Below, piece by piece: positions 4,578-53,475 of a stretch of 53,475 nucleotides of DNA; within the stretch, counting starts at the first letter, position 1, and each line of letters begins with the position of its first letter. Source of the DNA: Pedosphaera sp. (GTDB lineage Bacteria > Verrucomicrobiota > Verrucomicrobiia > Limisphaerales > F1-12-MAGs170); assembly GCA_009695275.1 (NCBI GenBank), contig SIBF01000004.1:1-53475 (forward strand), read 5' to 3'. The notes under the pieces were generated by a model. That model did no database searches and had not been told where the DNA came from. It was given only the letters and a program-made list of their open reading frames with translations. Position numbers and translations under genes: made by a program.

Positions 4578-6731
4578 TCAATAGCTTCGCAGGTTCCATT
4601 CGTTGAGCAGCTCGGTCGGGAGCTCGCGGAGGAAGCGGGAGGGTTGTTGCATCATGTCACCACCGTAACCCGCTGAGGCACGAATCAGCGGATAGCTCAG
4701 GTAAAGTTCATTCTTCGCCCGTGTCACCGCGACGTAGAACAGCCGCCGTTCCTCCTCTTCGTTTTCGATCCGCTCCAACGAACGCGCAGAGGGAAACATT
4801 CCGTCGCACAGCATGATGAGGAATACGACGGAGAACTCGAGCCCCTTCGCCTGGTGAATCGTCGAGAGCTTGAGTTCTTCGTCATCTTTATTCTTCGGAC
4901 GTTCATCATCGGCTTCGATGTTCGAAAGAAGGGCAAGTTGCGTGAGGAATTCTCCGGCGGTTTTGAATTGCCGCGCAAAGGTCGCGAGTTGATCCAGATC
5001 TTCAAGGCGATTGCGGTAATTGGGAAAGTTCTCCTTGAGGTAATCCTCGTAGTTGGCTTCAACAGCGAGACGAATCACCTCGGCTGCGTTGGAGAAGACT
5101 GGCTCGGAGTCGAGTTGCGCCATGGTGATCGCGAACTGCGCCCACGCGACCGCGGTTTTCTTGCCCACGGCCGAAGAACAACCTTGCAGCGCGGTGCCGA
5201 GAATCGGGCGATGGGGCGGAGGCACTCCTTCCACCGAAGAGGGACGGGCCGGACTCGCCGCTTCAACTTTTGTCAGCTCGCCCAGAAATCTATGCCAGAG
5301 TTTATCCGCGCCCTTGCCGCCGACGCCCGGCAAAAGTCGGACGAGACGTTTGAACGAAAGTTCGTCGCGAGGGTTGTTGACCAGTTTGAGGTAGGCCGCC
5401 ACGTCCTTGACGTGGGCTTGCTCGAAGAACCGGATGCCGCTCGTGATGCTGAAGGGAATGTTGCGGCGGGTAAGTTCCAACTGAAGTTCGAGCGCGTGAA
5501 AGTGAGAGCGATAGAGGACCGCCATGTCGTTCAGACTGGCTCCCTCGTCGCGGAGTTCGAGCGCTCGTTGAGCGACGAAGGCAGCCTGCTCCGCTGCATC
5601 ACCGCAGACAACGAGCGCCGGAACCGGCCCTGTCTTGCGCGCGGGAACGAGCAGCTTGGCGAACTGTTGAACATTGGGCGCGATGGCGGCGTTGGCGAGC
5701 GAGAGGATCTCCGGCGTGCTGCGGTAATTCGTCTCGATCTTATAGACCTTCGCGGTCGGGTAGCGCTTTGGAAACTCAAAGATGTTTTGAAAGTTGGCGC
5801 CGCGCCACGAGTAGATGCTTTGCGAGTCGTCGCCGACAACCATGACGTTATGATGCCGCGCGCCAAGCAGATCAATGATGTCGCTCTGGAGTTTGTTGGT
5901 GTCCTGATACTCATCAACGAGGATGAATTGGAAGCGACGCTGGTAAAGTTCCAGCACGTCAGGAAAATCGTTGAGGAGCTTGAGCCAAAATACAAGAAGG
6001 TCATCGAAGTCCATCACGTTGGTCGATTGCTTTCGCTTTCGGTACTGTGCGTCGATCTGAATGATTTGTTCTGCGATCGGCTGGAAGCTCGAGTAATCCC
6101 CGGCGAGAATTTGCGGGATTGTCCGTTGCGTGTTCACCGCCATTGAAAAGACATCGTTCAACACTTCGGCCTTCGGAAATCGCGTCGCCTTCACATCAAT
6201 CCCGGCGTCATCCATGCAAGCTTTCAAAAGATCCTTGCTGTCCTCTCGATCCAGAATTGTGAAATCGGGCTTGTAACCGAGCTGGTCCGCGTGACGACGG
6301 AGGATTCGGTTGCCGATCGAGTGGAATGTTCCACCCCAGAGCGCCGTGATGTCGTTCCCCAGAATGTCCGTTATTCGTCGCATCATCTCCTTGGCCGCCT
6401 TGTTGGTGAACGTCAGGAGAAGAATACGTTCCGGGGGAATGCCCTGTTCCAGCAGATAGGCAACCCGGTAGGTGAGAGTGCGGGTCTTGCCGGAGCCGGC
6501 GCCGGCGATGACAAGCGATGGCCCCGGAAGAGCGGTGACGGCGGCGTGCTGTTGTGCGTTCAGCTCGCGGGCGTAATCGATTTGCAATTCGACCGGCGCG
6601 CTGAACGGTTGCAGCACATAATCACGAGACATGCCGTTGAAGTTACCGGCACGCGGGGAGAAGGGAAAAGATGAAAAGGCAACTCGATCAGTAATTTCTG
6701 GAGAACTCCGCCATTGACGCTCCGTGATCAT
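4578..6731 (-). CDS. UvrD/PcrA/Rep-type ATP-dependent DNA helicase (SF1)
   Basis: Walker A AGAGSGKTRTLTYRVAYL, DEYQDTN motif II, TNYRSTPEIL and TIHQAKGLEF motifs. Alternative start at ATG 6632 (MSRDYVLQ). Confidence 0.9.
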   Translation of the reverse strand: MITERQWRSSPEITDRVAFSSFPFSPRAGNFNGMSRDYVLQPFSAPVELQIDYARELNAQQHAAVTALPGPSLVIAGAGSGKTRTLTYRVAYLLEQGIPPERILLLTFTNKAAKEMMRRITDILGNDITALWGGTFHSIGNRILRRHADQLGYKPDFTILDREDSKDLLKACMDDAGIDVKATRFPKAEVLNDVFSMAVNTQRTIPQILAGDYSSFQPIAEQIIQIDAQYRKRKQSTNVMDFDDLLVFWLKLLNDFPDVLELYQRRFQFILVDEYQDTNKLQSDIIDLLGARHHNVMVVGDDSQSIYSWRGANFQNIFEFPKRYPTAKVYKIETNYRSTPEILSLANAAIAPNVQQFAKLLVPARKTGPVPALVVCGDAAEQAAFVAQRALELRDEGASLNDMAVLYRSHFHALELQLELTRRNIPFSITSGIRFFEQAHVKDVAAYLKLVNNPRDELSFKRLVRLLPGVGGKGADKLWHRFLGELTKVEAASPARPSSVEGVPPPHRPILGTALQGCSSAVGKKTAVAWAQFAITMAQLDSEPVFSNAAEVIRLAVEANYEDYLKENFPNYRNRLEDLDQLATFARQFKTAGEFLTQLALLSNIEADDERPKNKDDEELKLSTIHQAKGLEFSVVFLIMLCDGMFPSARSLERIENEEEERRLFYVAVTRAKNELYLSYPLIRASAGYGGDMMQQPSRFLRELPTELLNEWNLRSY

Positions 6732-6928
6732 TCGGCTTAAGTTCCGCGACGTGATCGTCAGCAGCCATCGATTTACCGGCCTGTTCGTGAACTGGTGCTA
6801 TTACTTTAGCTCCCGTCTCCTGCGCGCCGGGCTTGTCTGACCAAAACAATCTGACCCGTGCCGCAGGTGAACCGCCTGCGGCATTTTTTGTTGAGCGCAG
6901 CGCGATTCAAGTAAACCAGAAAAAAGTT

Positions 6929-44048: not shown

Positions 44049-44193
44049 CAGTTGAAATGGAGAGCGCGGTCGTCTCGACCGCTGTTCTCGGCGTCTCGCC
44101 GAGAACTCAGTGGGCGTGACCAGTCACCAGAGGGTGGGTTTCCGGAGCGGACGAGCTGGTCAGCGAGACGCTGACCAGGGCGTGCGAGACGCA
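44049..44193. repeat. REP-like palindromic doublet (REPIN-like), intergenic
   Basis: Ends are ggagagcgcggtcgtctcgaccgc and gcgtgcgagacgcacgcgctcccc. Internal hairpins are gttctcggcg-tctc-gccgagaac and ctggtcagcg-agac-gctgaccag. Lies between convergent genes. Confidence 0.75.
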
Positions 44194-44219
44194 CGCGCTC
44201 CCCAATTGCGACTGAATAG

Positions 44220-45362
44220 TTACGGTTTAGTCGCTGAATTGCTGAAGCGGGGATTCCAAAATCGGCGTTCTATGAACCGGTGAAACAAACTGCCAAGCAG
44301 GATCGTTACGCCCACGCAGCAAGGAATCCGTAGTAGCAGAATCCCCATCGGGGTGTCGGCACCAGACGAATCAAAGGCATGCCCCACGAGCCGCACCACC
44401 GGCCAATGCACCAGATAAAGGCTGTAGCACATTAGTCCCAGAAAACGCAGTGGAGATAGAATCTGAAGGTTATACGCGGTGCCGTCCCATCGCTTCAGTC
44501 CGAGGATCAGCAGGGCGTAGGAAAATGCCGCCAGGTACGCTTGATTGAGTGGAAGCCGGAGTTGTCGCAAGTCTGGCACTGCCCACAGGATGCCGACCAC
44601 AAGCGGGAGACAAAACCAACCCCATCTTCGCAAGGGGACGTAATTCGAAACGTAATAGACCAGAACTCCCGAAGCGAACATCAGCCATTGACCATCGAGA
44701 AACAGGCCCTCCGTGCGCAACGTTCGCAGTGGAAACAGAACCAGGACGGTTACGATCAGCGTCACCAAACTCAGTGCATGAAAGAAAAATCGGCGCGTGA
44801 CGACCAACGCCAAACCTACCAGGAAATAGAACTGCTCTTCGAAACACAGCGTCCACGAAGGCGGCAGCAGGGGGTTTTCAGAGCCGCCAGTCAGATGCCA
44901 TCGCCAGGTTTCGGTCAGACTCAAATTCCCAAGCCACTGCCATCTCTTCAGTGATTGTGGCGGCGGGACGCCAAGAGCTTCAAAATAGCTCGCAGGAAGA
45001 AACCCCTCAGACAGCCATGCGAACAAGGCTGTCATAGCAAGCGCAGCCCAGAATGGCGGGTAAATCCGCCGGAAGCGTCGCCAGAAGAAAAACTTTGCCG
45101 CGCCAGGTTCCGATCGTAATAGGTCCGCCGATGCCGTGACGCAGTAGCCGCTGATCACAAAGAAGAGTGGAACTCCAATCCAGCACTTTCCCAGGATCGC
45201 AAAGATGCCAGCAGTCACGCCGCTGGTCTCCTGGAGCGGACTTCGCGCGGAATGATAAACGACGACGAGAAGGCAAGCAAAGCCCCGCCACAACGTCAGT
45301 GAGTCATAGCGAACTCGTGAGTGTGTTTCTCCGGCATTCTGCCTTTGGTCTTCCAGCTGCAA
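44220..45362 (-). CDS. Acyltransferase family 3 (OafA/YrhL-like) membrane protein
   Basis: RYDSLTLWRGFACLLVVVYH N-terminal motif, ~10 TM segments. The start is TTG 45362, since there is no upstream ATG. Confidence 0.8.
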   Translation of the reverse strand: MQLEDQRQNAGETHSRVRYDSLTLWRGFACLLVVVYHSARSPLQETSGVTAGIFAILGKCWIGVPLFFVISGYCVTASADLLRSEPGAAKFFFWRRFRRIYPPFWAALAMTALFAWLSEGFLPASYFEALGVPPPQSLKRWQWLGNLSLTETWRWHLTGGSENPLLPPSWTLCFEEQFYFLVGLALVVTRRFFFHALSLVTLIVTVLVLFPLRTLRTEGLFLDGQWLMFASGVLVYYVSNYVPLRRWGWFCLPLVVGILWAVPDLRQLRLPLNQAYLAAFSYALLILGLKRWDGTAYNLQILSPLRFLGLMCYSLYLVHWPVVRLVGHAFDSSGADTPMGILLLRIPCCVGVTILLGSLFHRFIERRFWNPRFSNSATKP

Positions 45363-45454
45363 ATCGTTTCACTCCACACACCGTGCGATAATCGGGCGAA
45401 AAGCCTTGCCAGCGGGGCCGTTTCTGACGCTCAACAGTGCCCGGTGAGAGAAAC

Positions 45455-48400
45455 TCACGCCAGGAGTGCTTTGGCCTTTGCCAACGCCTCGTCCAGCTTG
45501 CCCGGATCCTTGCCGCCACCGCGTGCGTTGTCGGGTTTGCCGCCGCCTTTGCCACCGACGATGGGGGCGATCTGCTGGATGATCTTTCCGGCCTGCACCT
45601 TCGCGGTGAAGTCCGGTGAGACGGAGGCGACCAGTGAGACGGCGTTGTTCGCTGCCCCACCGAGGACGATAACACCCTTGAACCGGCTCTTAAGCGCATC
45701 CACCACGGCTTGGAGATAATCCGCGTCGCCATCGGGGAAACCCTGCGTGATGAGCGGGATGCCGTTGACCGTCTCCGACCGGGTGAGCAACCAGGCCGCG
45801 GTCTGCGCCGCGTTTCGGGCGATGGACGTCTTGAGCGCCTTCTCCGACTCCTTCTGCTGCGCGAGCAGGCTCTCGACTTTCTTCTCCAACTCGGCGACGG
45901 GGGAATTCAACTTTCCCGCGACGGTGCGAAGGAGGTGAAGTTGCTGGTTCGCGAGTTCGTAAGCGGTGAGGCCGGCAACGGCTTCGATACGGCGCACGCC
46001 GGCAGCAATGGCGTTCTCGCTCACGATGCGGAACAGGCCAATCTCGCCTGTCGCACGGGTGTGGGTGCCGCCGCAGAGTTCCATTGAGTAACCATCCAGT
46101 TTGTTCGCCGCGCCGCCGATCTGGACGACGCGTACGGTGTCGCCGTATTTGTCGCCGAAGAATTGCATCACGTCCTTGCGCGATTTCACGTCGGCGTAGG
46201 GGACTTCGGTCCACGAGACGCCGGTGTTTTCAAGAATGCGTTCGTTGACGAGTTTCTCGATGTCGGCAACCTGCGCGGGTGTAAGCGGCGCGCTGTTGAA
46301 GTCGAAAGTCAGCTTGTCCGGGCCGACGAATGAACCTTTTTGCGACGCTTCCTGGCTTACGACTTCGTGCAGCGCCCAGTGGAGCAAGTGCGTGACGGTG
46401 TGGTGACGTTGGATGGCACTGCGGCGTTCGTGATCGACGGTGAGAAGGACTTCCGAACCGACAATTGGCAGCGCGTCGCCAGACGCGCTGGGAGCGCGAC
46501 CGTCCCGGTCGCCCTGCTGCGCGTCTCGCGCAGCAGATCGGTGGGGGTGGAAAACGAGAAACGTTGAGGAACTCGCGGCACCCTCGCGCGGGGAATCGGT
46601 CGGCGAGACGCCGACCGATGCGACCGGGACGGTCGCGCTCCCCTCTTCGATGAAATGGAGCCAGGTGTTGCCGGATTTTTGCGTGTTGGTGATGCGCCAG
46701 AGCTGGCCGCCGCCATTCAATTCGCCGGTGTCACCGACCTGGCCGCCCATCTCGGCGTAGCAGGCGGAAGCATCGAGGATGACAGCGGTCTTGTCCTTGA
46801 GCGAGACGACCTCCAGGACTTTGGCTTGGACGGCGAGGTGCTCGAAGCCGACGAACTTCGTGGGTGTCGTGGTCTCGATTTTCGAAAGTGAAATGACTTC
46901 CTTCTTCTGCGCGGCACGGGCGCGGGCGCGCTGCTCTTTCATCAGCTCTTCAAAGCCCTCCACGTCCACCGTCAGGCCACGTTCGCGCGCCATCAACTCG
47001 GTGAGGTCGAGCGGGAAGCCCTGCTCGTCATAAAGCCGGAACGCGAACGCACCTGAGATTTGGGCAGGGATGGCTTGGGGAGCGCGCCCGCCCCGGGCGC
47101 TGTTTCCCGCGCCCTCGCGGGAAACGGTCGGGCGTGGGACGTCACCGGACGCCGAGATTTCATTGTGCGTTCCCGAGCCGCCCGGGGCGGGCGCGCTCCC
47201 TGGCGCATCGGGAGTCCACAGCCAGCGATAATTCTCCGACGAGGGAACCACGGCGTTGTCCCAGGGATTGCGGCAGATGTAATGAAACTTCTCTTCCAAG
47301 TCCGAGTCGCCTCGCATCAGGCGGTCAAAAAAATCTTCCTCCCAAATATGAACTCCAGAGACCTTGGCCGCTTTGTTGATCTTGTGTGCGGTCGTGGACT
47401 TGATTCCGTGGAGGATTTCTCCGAGCGGATAAAAGACCGGTTTGCCGTCTTTGTCTTGCTCCTTGATTTGGGGTTCGAACAGCAGGTGAACATGGTCGGG
47501 CATCACGCGCGCGGCAAAAAGTTGATACTGCCGATGGGTGTGAGCATAGAGAACGCTCTCCAGCACGATGTCGCGCTCGGCCGGAGTGAGTTGCCGTTTC
47601 TCTCGCGTGGAGAAGGTCACCATGTATTTGCCCCAGGGTCGTTCGAAATGCGGCAGGCGTCTTTTGGAATAGGTAGCACCGGGGTTGTCGGACGCTCTGG
47701 GGCCGACCGCGAGGGCGCGGTCGGCTGCGCCCGGGGCGGGCGCGCTCCCCATCACCAATGGAAGCGGCGATCCCGCAGTCATGTGTGTCTTGTTTCCAAG
47801 TGTAATTCGAGCGGGACCACCCTGAATCAGACTCGCTTCCTCGTTGAAGAGCGCGATACCTTTGTCGAGCGTCTTGTTAAACGCCTCCTCCTCACGCTGG
47901 ATGACCTCCTGCACATGGGCTTTCCGGGCGCGAATTTCAGGGAAGACATCGCCCATTGTGTCGGCGAGCACGTCCACGAGCTTGTAGAAGAACGGTTGGT
48001 GGAAGCCGAGCGTGCGGCCGTAGCGCACGGCGCGGCGCAGGATGCGGCGGAGGACGTAGTTGCGGTCGGTGTTGCCGGGTTGGATGCCGTCGGCAATCGC
48101 AAACGAGAGCGTGCGGATGTGATCGGCAATAACCCGGAAGGCGATATCGAGCGCGATTTGCTCCGCACCATGGGCAGCGCGACCGTCCCGGTCGCTCTGT
48201 TGCGCGTCTCGCGCAACAGCCCCGGGGGTGTGGGAAGCGAGAGATGTTGAGGAACTCGCGGCACCCTCGCGCGCGGAATCGGTCGGCGGGACGCCGACCG
48301 ATGCGACCGGGACGGTCGCGCTCCCCGTCGCTTCGCGACGTAGCTTTTCCTCGGTCGCAGCGTCGGGTGTCCAGAGCCATCGATAGTTTTCCGTGGATGG

Positions 48401-49867
48401 CGCGACGCCGGAATCCCACGGGTTGCGGCAGATGTAGTGGAACTTCTCTTCGAGATCGGCGTCGCCACGAATCATGCGGTCGAACGATTCGTTCTCCCAC
48501 ACTTGGCCCGTGGTGTTTTCCGCCTTGTTGATCTCGTGGGCGGTGAACGATTTGATTGAGTGCATCAACTCGGACAGCGGCCAGAACACGGGCTTGCCTT
48601 CCTTGTCCTCCTCTTTGATCTGCGGCTCGAACAGGAAATGAACGTGATCGGGCATGACGCAGGCGGCATACATCTGATAGCGGCGCTGATCGTGTCCGAA
48701 AAGGAGGCTCTTGAGCACGATGTCCTGCGCTTGCGGCGAAAGCTGACGACGCTCGCGCGTTGTGAAACTAACCATGTATTTCGCCCACGGATGCTCGAAG
48801 TGCGGAAGGCGGCGCTTGTAGTAGGTAGCTTGAGGAGCGCGACCGTCACGGTCGCTCTGCTGCGCGTCCCGCGCGGCAGATCCGGGAGCGTGGGAAGCAG
48901 ATGATGCCGTTGGACTCGTCGCGCGCGTGGGATCGGGCGGCGGGACGCCGACCGGGGCGACCGGGACGGTCGCGCTCCCCGCTCCCTGCGGGAGTGTGCT
49001 GCCATAGCGTTTTCCACTCATTGCTTCCAGCGCGTCGAAGATCGGCCGAAAGATGTCGGTTTCATAGTTGGAGATTCTGGCGTTGGCGAAATCGGTCAGA
49101 CCCTTTGTGCCCTGCATGATGCTCGTGACGCGCTCGAAGCCCATGCCCGTATCCACGTGCTGGGCAGGCAACGGGGAGAATGTGCCGTCCGGGTTCGCGT
49201 TGAACTGGATGAAGACCAGGTTCCAGATCTCGATGCAGCGGGCGTCGCCTTTGTTGACAAGTGAACCCTTGGTGTCGCCAGCGGGCGTCAAATCAACGTG
49301 CAGTTCGGAGCAGGGACCGCATGGCCCGGTCTCACCCATCATCCAGAAGTTGTCTTTCTTGTTGCCGTTGACAATGTGGGCGGCGGGATCGAGGCCGACG
49401 CTGCGGAACTTTTCGGCCCAGAAGTTCCATGCTTCCTCGTCGCGCTCGGCAGGATCACCAATGGATTTGTCCGGATTGTAAATCGTGGCATAGAGCCGTT
49501 GGGGCGGAAATTTCCAGACACCGATAACCAATTCCCACGCCCACTCAATAGCCTCTTTCTTGAAGTAATCGCCGAAGGACCAGTTGCCGAGCATTTCGAA
49601 GAACGTGTGGTGGTAGGTATCAAGGCCGACGTCGTCGAGGTCGTTGTGCTTGCCGCCGGCGCGGATGCACTTCTGGGTGTCGGCGGCGCGGCCGGGTGTG
49701 TAGGGGCACCTGGTCTGGCCGAGGAAGATGGGCACGAACTGGTTCATGCCGGCGTTCGTGAACAGGAGGTTCGGCGAATCGGGCATTAGCGAGGACGATG
49801 GGACGATGGAGTGCTGCTTCGACTTGAAGAAGTCGAGAAACGACTGGCGGATTTGCGAACTCGTCAT
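45455..49867 (-). CDS. alaS: Alanine--tRNA ligase with three in-frame REP/RAYT insertions (1470 aa)
   Basis: ATG 49867 (MTSSQIRQSFLDFF). FTNAGMNQF, RAGGKHNDLDDVG, HHTFFEMLGNWSFGDYFK, WMMGETGPCGPCSE, VDTGMGFERV; FRVIADHIRTL; FRLYDEQGFPLDLT; editing HTVTHLLHWAL and CGGTHT; C-terminal GGGGKPDNARGGG. A single ORF with no internal stops. Confidence 0.9.
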   Translation of the reverse strand: MTSSQIRQSFLDFFKSKQHSIVPSSSLMPDSPNLLFTNAGMNQFVPIFLGQTRCPYTPGRAADTQKCIRAGGKHNDLDDVGLDTYHHTFFEMLGNWSFGDYFKKEAIEWAWELVIGVWKFPPQRLYATIYNPDKSIGDPAERDEEAWNFWAEKFRSVGLDPAAHIVNGNKKDNFWMMGETGPCGPCSELHVDLTPAGDTKGSLVNKGDARCIEIWNLVFIQFNANPDGTFSPLPAQHVDTGMGFERVTSIMQGTKGLTDFANARISNYETDIFRPIFDALEAMSGKRYGSTLPQGAGSATVPVAPVGVPPPDPTRATSPTASSASHAPGSAARDAQQSDRDGRAPQATYYKRRLPHFEHPWAKYMVSFTTRERRQLSPQAQDIVLKSLLFGHDQRRYQMYAACVMPDHVHFLFEPQIKEEDKEGKPVFWPLSELMHSIKSFTAHEINKAENTTGQVWENESFDRMIRGDADLEEKFHYICRNPWDSGVAPSTENYRWLWTPDAATEEKLRREATGSATVPVASVGVPPTDSAREGAASSSTSLASHTPGAVARDAQQSDRDGRAAHGAEQIALDIAFRVIADHIRTLSFAIADGIQPGNTDRNYVLRRILRRAVRYGRTLGFHQPFFYKLVDVLADTMGDVFPEIRARKAHVQEVIQREEEAFNKTLDKGIALFNEEASLIQGGPARITLGNKTHMTAGSPLPLVMGSAPAPGAADRALAVGPRASDNPGATYSKRRLPHFERPWGKYMVTFSTREKRQLTPAERDIVLESVLYAHTHRQYQLFAARVMPDHVHLLFEPQIKEQDKDGKPVFYPLGEILHGIKSTTAHKINKAAKVSGVHIWEEDFFDRLMRGDSDLEEKFHYICRNPWDNAVVPSSENYRWLWTPDAPGSAPAPGGSGTHNEISASGDVPRPTVSREGAGNSARGGRAPQAIPAQISGAFAFRLYDEQGFPLDLTELMARERGLTVDVEGFEELMKEQRARARAAQKKEVISLSKIETTTPTKFVGFEHLAVQAKVLEVVSLKDKTAVILDASACYAEMGGQVGDTGELNGGGQLWRITNTQKSGNTWLHFIEEGSATVPVASVGVSPTDSPREGAASSSTFLVFHPHRSAARDAQQGDRDGRAPSASGDALPIVGSEVLLTVDHERRSAIQRHHTVTHLLHWALHEVVSQEASQKGSFVGPDKLTFDFNSAPLTPAQVADIEKLVNERILENTGVSWTEVPYADVKSRKDVMQFFGDKYGDTVRVVQIGGAANKLDGYSMELCGGTHTRATGEIGLFRIVSENAIAAGVRRIEAVAGLTAYELANQQLHLLRTVAGKLNSPVAELEKKVESLLAQQKESEKALKTSIARNAAQTAAWLLTRSETVNGIPLITQGFPDGDADYLQAVVDALKSRFKGVIVLGGAANNAVSLVASVSPDFTAKVQAGKIIQQIAPIVGGKGGGKPDNARGGGKDPGKLDEALAKAKALLA
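46490..46642. repeat. REP doublet family A (insertion 3 in alaS), 153 bp
   Basis: Exact 23-nt inverted termini gggagcgcgaccgtcccggtcgc / gcgaccgggacggtcgcgctccc, plus inner hairpins with tctc/gaga loops. Translated as 51 codons, GSATVPVASVGVSPTDS...DRDGRAP. Confidence 0.85.
47078..47200. repeat. REP doublet family B (C-terminal flank of insertion 2), 123 bp
   Basis: Exact 22-nt inverted termini gggagcgcgcccgccccgggcg / cgcccggggcgggcgcgctccc. Inner hairpin tttcccgcg-ccct-cgcgggaaa. Translated as 41 codons. Confidence 0.85.
47201..47727 (-). mobile_element. RAYT-type (IS200-like Y1/HUH) transposase module 2, fused in-frame inside alaS
   Basis: YSKRRLPHFERPWGKYMVTF..., HUH motif PDHVHLLF, and catalytic-Tyr motif KFHYICRNPW. 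No start or stop of its own; same frame as alaS. Confidence 0.8.
47728..47749. repeat. Single family-B REP (N-terminal flank of insertion 2)
   Basis: cgcccggggcgggcgcgctccc, identical to the right arm at 47179..47200. Preceded by the hairpin gccgaccgc-gaggg-gcggtcggc. Confidence 0.75.
48173..48325. repeat. REP doublet family A (C-terminal flank of insertion 1), 153 bp
   Basis: Left arm ggcagcgcgaccgtcccggtcgc (1 substitution), right arm gcgaccgggacggtcgcgctccc. Same internal layout as 46490..46642. Confidence 0.85.
48326..48832 (-). mobile_element. RAYT-type (IS200-like Y1/HUH) transposase module 1, fused in-frame inside alaS
   Basis: YYKRRLPHFEHPWAKYMVSF..., HUH motif PDHVHFLF, and KFHYICRNPW. 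169 codons, no stop, same frame as alaS. Confidence 0.8.
48833..48979. repeat. REP doublet family A (N-terminal flank of insertion 1), 147 bp
   Basis: Left arm aggagcgcgaccgtcacggtcgc (2 substitutions), right arm gcgaccgggacggtcgcgctccc. Translated as 49 codons, GSATVPVAPVGVPPPD...DRDGRAP. Confidence 0.85.
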
Positions 49868-50077
49868 TCGTTGAAATGTTAAATCGTTAAATTGTGAACC
49901 GTAAAATCTTTGCCGCGAAAGAACGCAGAGAACACAAAGAATTCTTCCGCAACAAGGCGGGGAAACTAGCCGAAACCGTCCACGAGAGGCGAGTGGAAGT
50001 TTTGGCCCTTTTGGAGGTTCCACTGAAGAGGCAAGCGTGCCCGGCAGCCTTTTCCGACAAAACAGCCGGAAGAGTAT

Positions 50078-50740
50078 TCAGGGCATGAAACGGGGGGGAG
50101 GTGCTTTCACGAACGTCGTCGCGCGGAGATAGATGGGTTCAAGCAGCTCTCCTGGCAGGAAGTTGCTTCGCGTAACCGCGAGCTGACCGATGGCAGATGC
50201 GGCTGGCTCAACGTCGTGTGCTGATTGGAATTTTGCGGATAACCCCGGTCCGAAAAGACCACATTGATCACCGAGCAGAGAGTCGAGTTGTTCACGAGAC
50301 TTGAGGTTCATGGCTTCGATAATCGCGATGGTATTCGGGAAAATGTTCAACAAGGTCACGTAGAATTCACCTCGCTGCGCATCAATGGCGATTCGCACTT
50401 TGTCCCGGAGGCCTCTTTGCTGGAGTTGAAATGCGATGGCGTCAGCGCTGCCAACGCCTTGGAGTTTCAGACCTGTCGCCAGTTGCCAGCCCTGGGCGAT
50501 GGAGATGGCTGCCCGGATGCCGGTGTAGGAACCAGGTCCGAGTCCAACCACGATCTCACTTATCTCGCCGCGTTTGAGCCCGGCAACTCCAAGCGCGTTT
50601 TGTATCAACGCCAGCGGACGCACATTGCGATCCCCGGCATCGGCGGCTTCTCCCAGGATCTTCGCGGCACTGTCGCCATTGGCGGAAAGGATCGCCGCGC
50701 TCCGGATATTTCCTGAGAATTCGAGCGCCAATGTGATCAT
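50078..50740 (-). CDS. tsaB: tRNA t6A37 biosynthesis protein TsaB (YeaZ)
   Basis: MITLALEFSG N-terminus and the GPGSYTGIRAAISIAQG motif. ATGA overlap with the tsaE stop. Confidence 0.8.
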   Translation of the reverse strand: MITLALEFSGNIRSAAILSANGDSAAKILGEAADAGDRNVRPLALIQNALGVAGLKRGEISEIVVGLGPGSYTGIRAAISIAQGWQLATGLKLQGVGSADAIAFQLQQRGLRDKVRIAIDAQRGEFYVTLLNIFPNTIAIIEAMNLKSREQLDSLLGDQCGLFGPGLSAKFQSAHDVEPAASAIGQLAVTRSNFLPGELLEPIYLRATTFVKAPPPRFMP

Positions 50741-52866: not shown

Positions 52867-52958
52867 CCGGCGGAAACTAAGCAGCGGCTTCGTGAGTTAC
52901 GATGGAAAAATGAGGTTGGCGCTGATTGCCGAAGGCTCTTATCCGAATCCATGCAACA

Positions 52959-53140
52959 GGAGCGCGGAATTCATTCCGCGTGGATCCTGCAAGGCCCCAA
53001 GGGCTGTAGGCTCGACGACATGCCAAGTGATCAAAAACCAGGTCATAGGAAAGTGACCAACGCGAAAAGCAATTTGCCGCGGCCGAAATCTCCGGCCAAA
53101 GTGGGAATTCCACGCGGCTGCGGAATAAATTCCGCGCTCC
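52959..53140. repeat. REP-like doublet, third family (GGAGCGCGGAAT..ATTCCGC)
   Basis: Left arm ggagcgcggaattcattccgcgtgga. Right arm (reverse complement) ggagcgcggaatttattccgcagccgcgtgga. Accounts for the spurious 138-aa ORF at 52877..53293. Confidence 0.7.
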
Positions 53141-53319
53141 TATTGAATTGTTCCGCATGTCCGCTGCGAGGCCTCCCCCAATTGACTTACACTCGGTGAA
53201 GTAATGAAAGACAAGCTGTTTTGACTGGCTGTCCCTTCGAACGATGCTTTCGCCACCGTAAAGCCCATCGTTGATGGAATGAAGGACTCTCACCGCTTTT
53301 CCATTGAGGGCGCGCTCCC

Positions 53320-53347
53320 AACCTTGAACCTTGAACCTTGAACCTTG
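53320..53347. repeat. Tandem heptamer array (AACCTTG x4)
   Basis: Four perfect copies of aaccttg, directly after a gggcgcgctccc REP-head remnant. Confidence 0.85.
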
Positions 53348-53348
53348 A

Positions 53349-53416
53349 GTCGAGTAGGTCTCCGCGCGGAGAGGCGTCAGGTGGGAAAGAGAGCTGACCG
53401 CGGAGACTTACTCGAC
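53349..53416. other. Long hairpin (18-bp stem, 32-nt loop) of unknown function
   Basis: gtcgagtaggtctccgcg ... cgcggagacttactcgac, with one G-T (G-U) position. Adjacent to the heptamer array at the window edge. Confidence 0.6.
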
Positions 53417-53475
53417 TGTTGGACGAAGCCTAGTCGCGGCTCCCTTATGGGAAAAGTAACGTCCGAGGCCGACTG

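Follow-up and report, generated by a model that had tools for sequence, protein, structure and literature searches.

A REP-associated transposase module carried in frame within the alanyl-tRNA synthetase gene of a Pedosphaera species

The stretch of DNA analysed here (the window) covers the 53,475 nucleotides at positions 1–53,475 of contig SIBF01000004.1 of Pedosphaera sp. (assembly GCA_009695275.1). On its minus strand lies alaS, the gene for alanine--tRNA ligase (alanyl-tRNA synthetase, AlaRS), as an unbroken open reading frame (ORF) of 1470 codons plus stop (45455–49867) that contains three in-frame insertions. The first of these, a REP-associated tyrosine transposase (RAYT) module placed between repetitive extragenic palindromes (REPs), is the main subject of this report. 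Delimited mechanically, the ORF extends from 45455 to 50023, where it reaches a GTG; the start was taken as the ATG at 49867, giving a product that begins MTSSQIRQSFLDFF, in agreement with the homologue consensus MTSxQIRQSF. The product scores 811 bits in four stretches against TIGR00344 (cutoff 457) and has the full set of Pfam domains tRNA-synt_2c, tRNA_SAD and DHHA1, which identifies it as an alanine--tRNA ligase; the only other Pfam family in it is Y1_Tnp. Residues 1–287 correspond to residues 25–297 of human AlaRS, residues 567–676 to 304–415 and residues 937–980 to 426–469, and the alignments to the human, E. coli and A. aeolicus AlaRS structures are interrupted exactly at the inserts. 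An exact look-up of the uninterrupted 1470-residue product gave no match on record. In the NCBI record of the contig only the carboxy-terminal 431 residues are called, as 'hypothetical protein EXS31_00665' (window 45458–46750; P0271), so gene callers evidently break alaS at the inserts.

The three insertions measure 807, 672 and 153 bp. Each is stop-free and in frame, with host homology on both sides, and all three have the properties of in-frame intragenic insertions of the REP or Rickettsia palindromic element (RPE) type. Read in the coding direction, all on the minus strand, insertion 1 (site S1; 48173–48979, 269 codons) starts with a REP doublet of family A (REPIN-A; 48833–48979, 147 nucleotides, encoding GSATVPVAPVGVPPPDPTRATSPTASSASHAPGSAARDAQQSDRDGRAPQ). 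This is followed by the RAYT-A module of 169 codons (48326–48832), which family and fold evidence identifies as a Y1 transposase domain of the histidine-hydrophobic-histidine (HUH) type, and by a second REPIN-A doublet of 153 nucleotides (48173–48325) on the carboxy-terminal side. The codons of the HUH motif (H-V-H of MPDHVH) are at 48638–48646 and that of the catalytic tyrosine (Y of KFHYICRNPW), which falls on the predicted carboxy-terminal helix, is at 48434–48436. An initial annotation of the window, made by a model from the letters alone, had delimited the two doublets and the module between them, and we find every element where it had been placed; the minus-strand translation contains RRLPHFE, MPDHVHFLF and KFHYICRNPW, matching the three motifs listed at that time.

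The outer arms of both doublets are copies of the 23-mer GGGAGCGCGACCGTCCCGGTCGC, located at 48173–48195 (plus strand, one mismatch) and 48303–48325 (minus strand, exact) in one doublet and at 48833–48855 (plus strand, two mismatches) and 48957–48979 (minus strand, exact) in the other. Each pair is a REP doublet, or REPIN, with its arms as inverted repeats, and the substitutions are in the left arms, as had been described. Two further copies of the 23-mer are present in insertion 3, the number of matches expected by chance being zero. Folded as single-stranded DNA (ssDNA), both doublets form long hairpins, of -68.5 kcal/mol for 48173–48325 (z = -9.9 against shuffled sequences) and of -51.7 kcal/mol for 48833–48979 (z = -4.8). 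The AlaRS sequence leads into the insertion with ...GKRYGSTLPQGA and continues after it with HGAEQIALDIAFRVIADHIR. Where homologues with an empty site read ...GSTLPKAGSTGDTEQEKVDVA..., the window has ...GSTLPQGA, 269 residues, HGAEQIALDIA...; this comparison confirms the boundaries with an uncertainty of a few residues, and the native AlaRS sequence does resume on both sides. Site S1 falls between residues 297 and 304 of human AlaRS, in the loop that connects the helix following motif 3 with the RVIADH helix of the tRNA-recognition domain; the earlier placement in the linker between catalysis and tRNA recognition was approximately right. A target-site motif could not be derived from the insertion junctions.

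Insertion 2 (site S2; 47078–47749, 224 codons) is a second in-frame REP-RAYT unit on the minus strand, located ahead of the LYDTYGFP helix and made up of a single REP-B (about 47707–47749), a RAYT-B module (about 47219–47689) and a REPIN-B doublet (47078–47200). RAYT-B is a paralogue, 67% identical to RAYT-A, and has a REP variant of its own, GGGAGCGCGCCCGCCCCGGGCGC. Just before insertion 2 there is an extra segment of about 26 residues, GGPARITLGNKTHMTAGSPLPLVM (window about 47752–47830, AlaRS residues about 680–705), which has no counterpart in canonical AlaRS and no obvious REP origin. Insertion 3 (site S3; 46490–46642, minus strand, 51 codons) is a solo REPIN-A between the beta-barrel and editing domains, 90% identical to 48173–48326. 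In homologues, site S3 may be empty, occupied by other REPIN families or occupied by a RAYT (P0016, P0339 and P0376).

The assignment of the module as a RAYT, proposed by the initial annotation from its motifs, is borne out by profile searches and by structure prediction. RAYT-A scores 32.9 bits against Pfam Y1_Tnp (PF01797, curated cutoff 23) and the S2 copy 31.4 bits; against the NCBIfam equivalog REP_Tyr_transpos (NF047646), RAYT-A scores 80.4 bits, with a cutoff of 80, over positions 4–145 of 146. In an AlphaFold2 model of the 269-residue insert, the core (residues 61–190) is predicted with a predicted local distance difference test score (pLDDT) of 92–97 and has the order of strands and helices of TnpA, with MPDHVH on a strand (residues 112–119) and KFHY on a helix (residues 172–189). 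The best 30 Foldseek matches to this model in the PDB are all IS200, IS608, ISDra2 or TnpA-REP structures, with a probability of 1.00 and target-normalised TM-scores of 0.55–0.67. They include IS200 (2f4f, E = 5.5e-7) and E. coli TnpA-REP (4er8, E = 3.4e-6), with target-normalised TM-scores of 0.62–0.64; for 2f4f, 4er8, 2vic and 2xma taken together, E-values range from 5e-7 to 1e-5 and these TM-scores from 0.57 to 0.64. The sequence score, the HUH strand with a single helical tyrosine and the TnpA fold all place the module in the Y1 HUH superfamily. In a 700-residue model of the amino-terminal half of AlaRS, the RAYT domain (pLDDT 86–94) and the tRNA-recognition helices (78–93) are again well defined, while residues 295–357 and 514–565 have pLDDT values below 30 and the peptide encoded by the amino-terminal REPIN-A doublet stays below 50; the REPIN-encoded flanks are thus predicted to be disordered linkers. 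As in four other loci (L001, L002, L003 and L104), the module is bracketed by inverted cognate REPs. Two features differ from those that usually define a RAYT: the module does not stand free as a single-copy gene with a start and stop of its own, two paralogues being present in one host ORF, and the foot of the REP hairpin has no GTAG at its 5' side, the head being GGGAGC followed by GCGACCG-TCC-CGGTCGC.

No stop codon is present in the alaS frame of the 807-bp insertion 1, and none of the 70 in-frame codons that precede LPHFE is an ATG, GTG or TTG in the S1 copy of the window, of L001 or of L002. The description of insertion 1 as a complete REP-RAYT locus without a start or stop of its own is therefore supported, inverted REP doublets flanking a module that has neither. 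Since there is no start in the 70 codons upstream of the invariant amino-terminal motif, the RAYT would be translatable only as part of AlaRS. This was also the first proposal of the initial annotation; its second, that translation might begin internally at the methionine of AKYMVSF, holds up poorly, as this methionine is downstream of the invariant RLPHFE and is replaced in other subfamilies (AIYHV, AIYAV, KYTV). A separate RAYT, released through such a start or through proteolysis of the linkers, so that AlaRS and RAYT are distinct proteins when mature, appears quite improbable to us. Gene callers do begin ORFs at that methionine (P0339 and P0376 start with MVTFSTRER) and long disordered linkers would be accessible to proteases, but a product started there loses RLPHFE, which is invariant, and cutting both linkers would break AlaRS up, leaving its catalytic domain apart from those for tRNA recognition and editing.

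Nor does the insert have the signatures of an element that is removed by splicing. Pfam searches yield only AlaRS families and Y1_Tnp, with no match to Hint or intein families at E-values up to 0.01 and no LAGLIDADG family. The junctions, QGA|GSATV and DGRAA|HGAEQ, are not intein-like: the residues (G...A|H) include no cysteine, serine or threonine nucleophile and no His-Asn motif. Rfam has no match at E-values up to 1 on either strand of 45300–50200, so no group I or group II ribozyme is indicated. The insert occupies the niche of inteins and group I introns, as an element with a central nuclease in conserved loops of essential genes, and the flanking inverted repeats could pair the ends of the insert in RNA. 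Even so, splicing at the RNA or protein level, directed by the REPIN hairpins or by unknown motifs and restoring a normal AlaRS, is very improbable. The unit is kept stop-free, a multiple of three in length and in the host frame, none of which an RNA intron would need, and solo REPINs and degenerate REP peptides persist in frame at the same sites.

The conservation of the arrangement was analysed in the 120 best matches of a search with the whole protein (1084–1408 residues), drawn from independent metagenome assemblies (JGI, ENA and NCBI) of Verrucomicrobiota, with members of Pedosphaera, Limisphaerales and 'subdivision 3'. All 120 have at least one full-length in-frame RAYT, and many are named 'alanyl-tRNA synthetase/REP element-mobilizing transposase RayT' by JGI. 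With a hidden Markov model (HMM) built from both window modules, one full-length module is found in 112 of 121 proteins (window AlaRS included) and two in the other nine, with 64 copies at S1, 59 at S2 and a few at S3. The catalytic residues, on whose conservation in other copies the initial annotation had made its reading depend, are nearly invariant: each histidine of the HUH motif is kept in 129 of 130 modules and the tyrosine in all 130. In KFHYICRNPW, the C, N and P are likewise present in 130 of 130, and in RLPHF each of L, P, H and F is kept in 129 or 130.

For comparison at the codon level, the closest loci fetched, L001 and L002, were used. RAYT-A has ratios of non-synonymous to synonymous substitution rates (dN/dS) of 0.087–0.089 at synonymous divergences (dS) of 0.80–1.09, while the AlaRS core has dN/dS of 0.08–0.18 and dS of 0.72–0.98; for RAYT-B, dN/dS against L002 is 0.062. 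RAYT-A is thus constrained as strongly as the AlaRS catalytic domain and, given the similar dS of module and core, its divergence has kept pace with that of alaS in the lineages of L001 and L002. Co-divergence was judged from dS in these closest loci rather than from correlated pairwise identities, as the latter (Spearman coefficients of about 0–0.4 between RAYT and AlaRS core) are uninformative, the two halves of AlaRS themselves giving 0.11–0.61. A further search, with the insert-free carboxy-terminal 344 residues, returned chiefly short fragments and split gene calls. At one locus that it led to (L124 4636–7587, GCA_026125285.1), a close relative encodes an intact AlaRS of 984 residues with S1 empty and no RAYT; its S2 site has an insertion of about 80 residues that is not REP-like in appearance. 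Relatives are therefore polymorphic for the RAYT. In two long-read contigs (L123 5445–5929 and L125 at about 5920), alaS is called as two genes. These were considered as true split alaS genes and rejected, the breaks being frameshifts within the conserved AlaRS core, for example ...EIRARKKQVQETIRTRKRRLI..., and most likely long-read assembly errors.

That insertion 1 is a dead transposon remnant tolerated in a loop, or the product of a chimeric assembly, is hardly credible. The public record of the contig, with its 431-residue hypothetical protein, and the alaS frameshifts in some long-read relatives might suggest it, but the same architecture is present in 120 independent assemblies, the dN/dS of the module is 0.09 with catalytic residues close to invariant, and the frameshifts of L123 and L125 are in the AlaRS core, not in an insert, and look like long-read errors. 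This alternative is effectively refuted, while recruitment of the fold by the host (discussed below), release of the RAYT and splicing are disfavoured by specific tests.

The REPs are maintained as nucleic acid. Compared with the orthologues in L001 and L002, the dS of REPIN-A is 0.26–0.34 in the amino-terminal doublet and 0.28–0.38 in the carboxy-terminal one (dN/dS about 0.4), about three-fold below that of the adjoining coding DNA (0.7–1.0). Against L003, synonymous sites of the core are saturated (proportion of synonymous differences, pS, 0.75–0.82) and those of the REP-B flanks are not (pS 0.19–0.21). The low synonymous change in the REP flanks shows that the constraint is on nucleotide sequence and hairpin, not on the peptide. 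In other loci too, the flanks at S1 are REP-A and those at S2 are REP-B (GGGAGCGCGCCCGCCCCGGGCGC), and L003 has a compensatory change in a REP stem. When 45 REP-A units from the window and related genomes are aligned, they do so without gaps as GGGAGC, hairpin 1 (GCGACCG-TCC-CGGTCGC) and hairpin 2, with 97.8% of the cells paired. In hairpin 2, eight of the ten pairs have changed on both sides, and the covariation score is 0.46, compared with 0.11 for shuffles and at most 0.15 for slid partners; hairpin 1 was the search pattern, and its invariance is no evidence.

As peptides, the REPs follow no single rule. Several REP families are represented among the in-frame REPIN peptides that homologues have at the three AlaRS sites, and the idea that REP peptides are always read in the GSA frame was discarded, other families being read as GAHAPSRV..., VGQASSLS... 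or VEQATSLS.... A special freedom of the REPINs from stop codons was upheld only in part: REPIN-A is open in five of six frames, at a GC content of 73%, and the shuffle test required, more strictly, that all six frames be open, as they are in 0.4% of shuffles.

The wider distribution of these REPs was assessed by scanning species-representative genomes with GGAGCGCGNCCGNCCCGGNCGC, a scan that includes chance matches from high-GC Actinomycetota. Among the matches listed are many loci of Verrucomicrobiota and Planctomycetota, and several Verrucomicrobiota metagenome-assembled genomes (MAGs) have at least two to four separate loci of the two-hairpin REP-A or REP-B unit. Extragenic copies in MAGs are often bordered by A/T-rich DNA, and one MAG has REP-A both in alaS (L112) and on a different contig (L118), extragenic copies included. 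In Planctomycetota (Isosphaera and Gemmataceae; L005, L007, L010, L013, L018, L030, L035, L036 and L115) there are many REP doublets with the head GGAGCGCG and the hairpin GGCCG-TCC-CGGCC, which suggests a REP type common to the Planctomycetes-Verrucomicrobia-Chlamydiae (PVC) superphylum. The window itself has two extragenic REPIN doublets, one between convergent genes (44055–44207) and one downstream of an ORF for a CPBP-type membrane protease (52941–53158). They have the head GGAGCGCG in common and differ in their hairpins, GTGCGTCTCGCAC / GGTCGTCTCGACC and GGAATTCATTCC, respectively. At 53318–53417, three to four tandem copies of AACCTTG are followed by a 19-nucleotide inverted repeat with GTAG (AGTCGAGTAGGTCTCCGCG / CGCGGAGACTTACTCGACT), which may represent a different REP family, of the GTAG type.

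The module is not confined to AlaRS. An exhaustive, profile-free search with it gave 5277 representatives at E-values up to 1e-3 and 77 at E-values up to 1e-30; among the best 150 matches, 45 are proteins of at least 300 residues with the module internal. Hosts include RecG (P0129, P0138, P0157, P0164, P0264 and the genomic locus L104, from a Chthoniobacteraceae MAG, where the module lies between 62-nucleotide inverted repeats at about 6270–6905), PriA, ValRS, ThrRS (P0149), PurH, a glycyl-radical enzyme, shikimate kinase, BirA, Ham1 and DNA methyltransferases; P0185, P0198, P0251, P0222, P0128, P0141, P0213, P0249, P0193 and P0217 are also host proteins other than AlaRS. Free-standing RAYTs of about 160 residues appear only at about 40% identity to the module, and ORFs of 230–270 residues with 52–62% identity (for example P0132) start upstream of the left REP and span both REPs. 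In-frame REP or REPIN peptides of the GSA(T/P)(V/A)P... type are also found elsewhere in Verrucomicrobiota, in ValRS (L058 at about 6453 and L098 at about 4646), in PurL (L089 at about 4118) and in a long coiled-coil protein (L107 5169–5330). Within AlaRS, the RAYT subfamilies are mostly site-specific, 37 of 38 A-type modules being at S1 and 53 of 58 B-type modules at S2. One homologue, P0036, has RAYT-B and REP-B peptides at S1 (residues about 300–500) that are 93% identical to S2 copies elsewhere, which indicates that the whole cassette can relocate along with its own REPs; the RAYTs at S3 in P0016, P0339 and P0376 also speak for such mobility.

These observations bear on whether the host has recruited the RAYT fold for a role unconnected with REPs, such as nucleic-acid binding or regulation, as a lineage-specific domain of AlaRS. 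The strong purifying selection on the module, a residence at S1 and S2 long enough for site-specific subfamilies to have formed, and the view that RAYTs in general are domesticated (PMC5581495) would all fit such recruitment. We nevertheless regard it as unlikely, because the same module is present in at least ten unrelated host proteins, contrary to an AlaRS-specific role, because the HUH and tyrosine residues required of a transposase hardly vary, because the REP flanks are kept at synonymous sites and travel with the RAYT, and because close relatives manage without it.

The window thus contains an intact REP-RAYT unit under selection, which has no translation signals and is in frame with an essential gene, at the position of a permissive loop. 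Purifying selection has preserved the arrangement in at least 120 AlaRS clusters, and it recurs in other host genes. With a probability of roughly 0.7, we read insertion 1 as a functional REP-RAYT unit that resides, as a domain inserted in frame, in a surface loop of AlaRS. Several points weigh against this reading. The RAYT score in NCBIfam is borderline (80.4 with a cutoff of 80), and the S2 copy, with 74.1, is under the cutoff. In the 53-kb window, all eight REP-A and REP-B copies are inside alaS and the extragenic REPINs belong to related families only. Homologue searches from a query that contains a RAYT favour sense, in-frame cases, antisense and out-of-frame inserts being invisible to protein searches. 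The intact AlaRS of L124, which has no RAYT, indicates that the domain is dispensable for AlaRS function. Finally, translation through the inserts, the ability of AlaRS to fold with 600 additional residues and activity of the RAYT are all inferred.

If this reading is right, ribosomes starting at the alaS ATG would read through the inserts to give an AlaRS of about 160 kDa, with the RAYT domains projecting from loops on REPIN-encoded, presumably disordered linkers of about 50 residues. Tethered in this way, the RAYT might bind and cleave its own REP hairpins on ssDNA, as E. coli TnpA-REP does, and so maintain or mobilise the genomic REPIN population; now and then it might move the whole REP-RAYT-REP cassette. 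The host gene, essential and constitutively expressed, would provide transcription and translation, and residence in it would shield the element from all but precise deletion, imprecise loss being lethal. Such a niche would be intein-like, without splicing.

Compared with canonical REP-RAYT systems (E. coli TnpA-REP, PDB entry 4er8, and the Pseudomonas RAYTs), the alaS unit has the same Y1 HUH fold with HUH motif and single catalytic tyrosine, inverted cognate REPs or REPINs that bracket the RAYT, paralogues each with its own REP variant (here A and B), REPs of the same family dispersed in the genome (here seen in related genomes) and mainly vertical inheritance. It differs in that the RAYT is not free-standing and has no promoter, start or stop, being read within an essential host gene, and in that the REPINs are themselves translated, as linkers. 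At the head of the REP, GGGAGC takes the place of GTAG, each REP has two hairpins, two RAYT paralogues share one host gene and membership of the NCBIfam family is borderline. In-frame intragenic palindromic repeats have been documented earlier as the RPEs of Rickettsia (PMC3733652), and intragenic REPs of the GTAG type, catalogued by Di Nocera et al. 2013 (PMC3733652), are most numerous in the verrucomicrobium Opitutus terrae; tRNA synthetases are among the genes hit, and the degenerate GTAG variants reported include GTGG in O. terrae (PMC3733652). Like our inserts, RPEs and intragenic REPs are short palindromes in frame in housekeeping genes, including DNA-repair genes and tRNA synthetases, and add 20–80 residues at permissive positions; insertion 3 and the REPIN peptides of ValRS and PurL are exactly of this kind. 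They are non-autonomous repeats only, whereas the alaS insert includes the transposase gene, which needs the host ORF for its translation.

Inteins with homing endonucleases offer another parallel: they too are selfish, nuclease-encoding elements in frame in conserved essential proteins such as aminoacyl-tRNA synthetases and helicases, are expressed only via the host gene and are protected from imprecise deletion. The alaS insert, in contrast, has no Hint domain or splice-junction residues and is most likely retained in the mature protein, and in place of a homing endonuclease it encodes an ssDNA HUH transposase. With IS200/IS605 elements and IStrons it shares the Y1 transposase, subterminal hairpins and a cassette that seemingly can move as a whole, as P0036 suggests; as in IStrons, the cost of insertion into genes is neutralised. 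Unlike them, the alaS unit has no tnpB, no high transposase copy number, no ORF signals of its own and no ribozyme, and where IStrons avoid harm to the host gene through RNA splicing, it does so at the protein level. No description of RAYT genes in frame within host ORFs was found in the literature searched. In-frame intragenic REPs and REP-RAYT systems were already known; what is new here is that the transposase gene itself is in frame in host ORFs. We would give an even chance to the broader proposition that this is an undescribed transposase lifestyle in Verrucomicrobiota, in which signal-less REP-RAYT-REP cassettes persist only as translated insertions in loops of essential proteins, the host protein being a bifunctional synthetase and ssDNA transposase and its gene both expression vehicle and deletion shield.

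RAYTs have been described as single-copy, vertically inherited, 'domesticated' transposases whose maintenance is unexplained (PMC5581495). A RAYT that has given up gene autonomy and is joined to essential genes would offer a concrete mechanism of persistence, through obligatory co-expression and protection from deletion. The predicted product, an AlaRS of about 160 kDa with two HUH nuclease domains, is a molecule that can be tested. The finding also concerns annotation, as the main survey of RAYT families dropped unexpectedly long proteins as fusions or errors (PMC6006769) and alaS of this contig is on record only as a 431-residue 'hypothetical protein'. The inserts provide a natural collection of permissive insertion loops in aminoacyl-tRNA synthetases and helicases, and they may represent a second, splicing-free case of selfish nuclease genes colonising conserved proteins.

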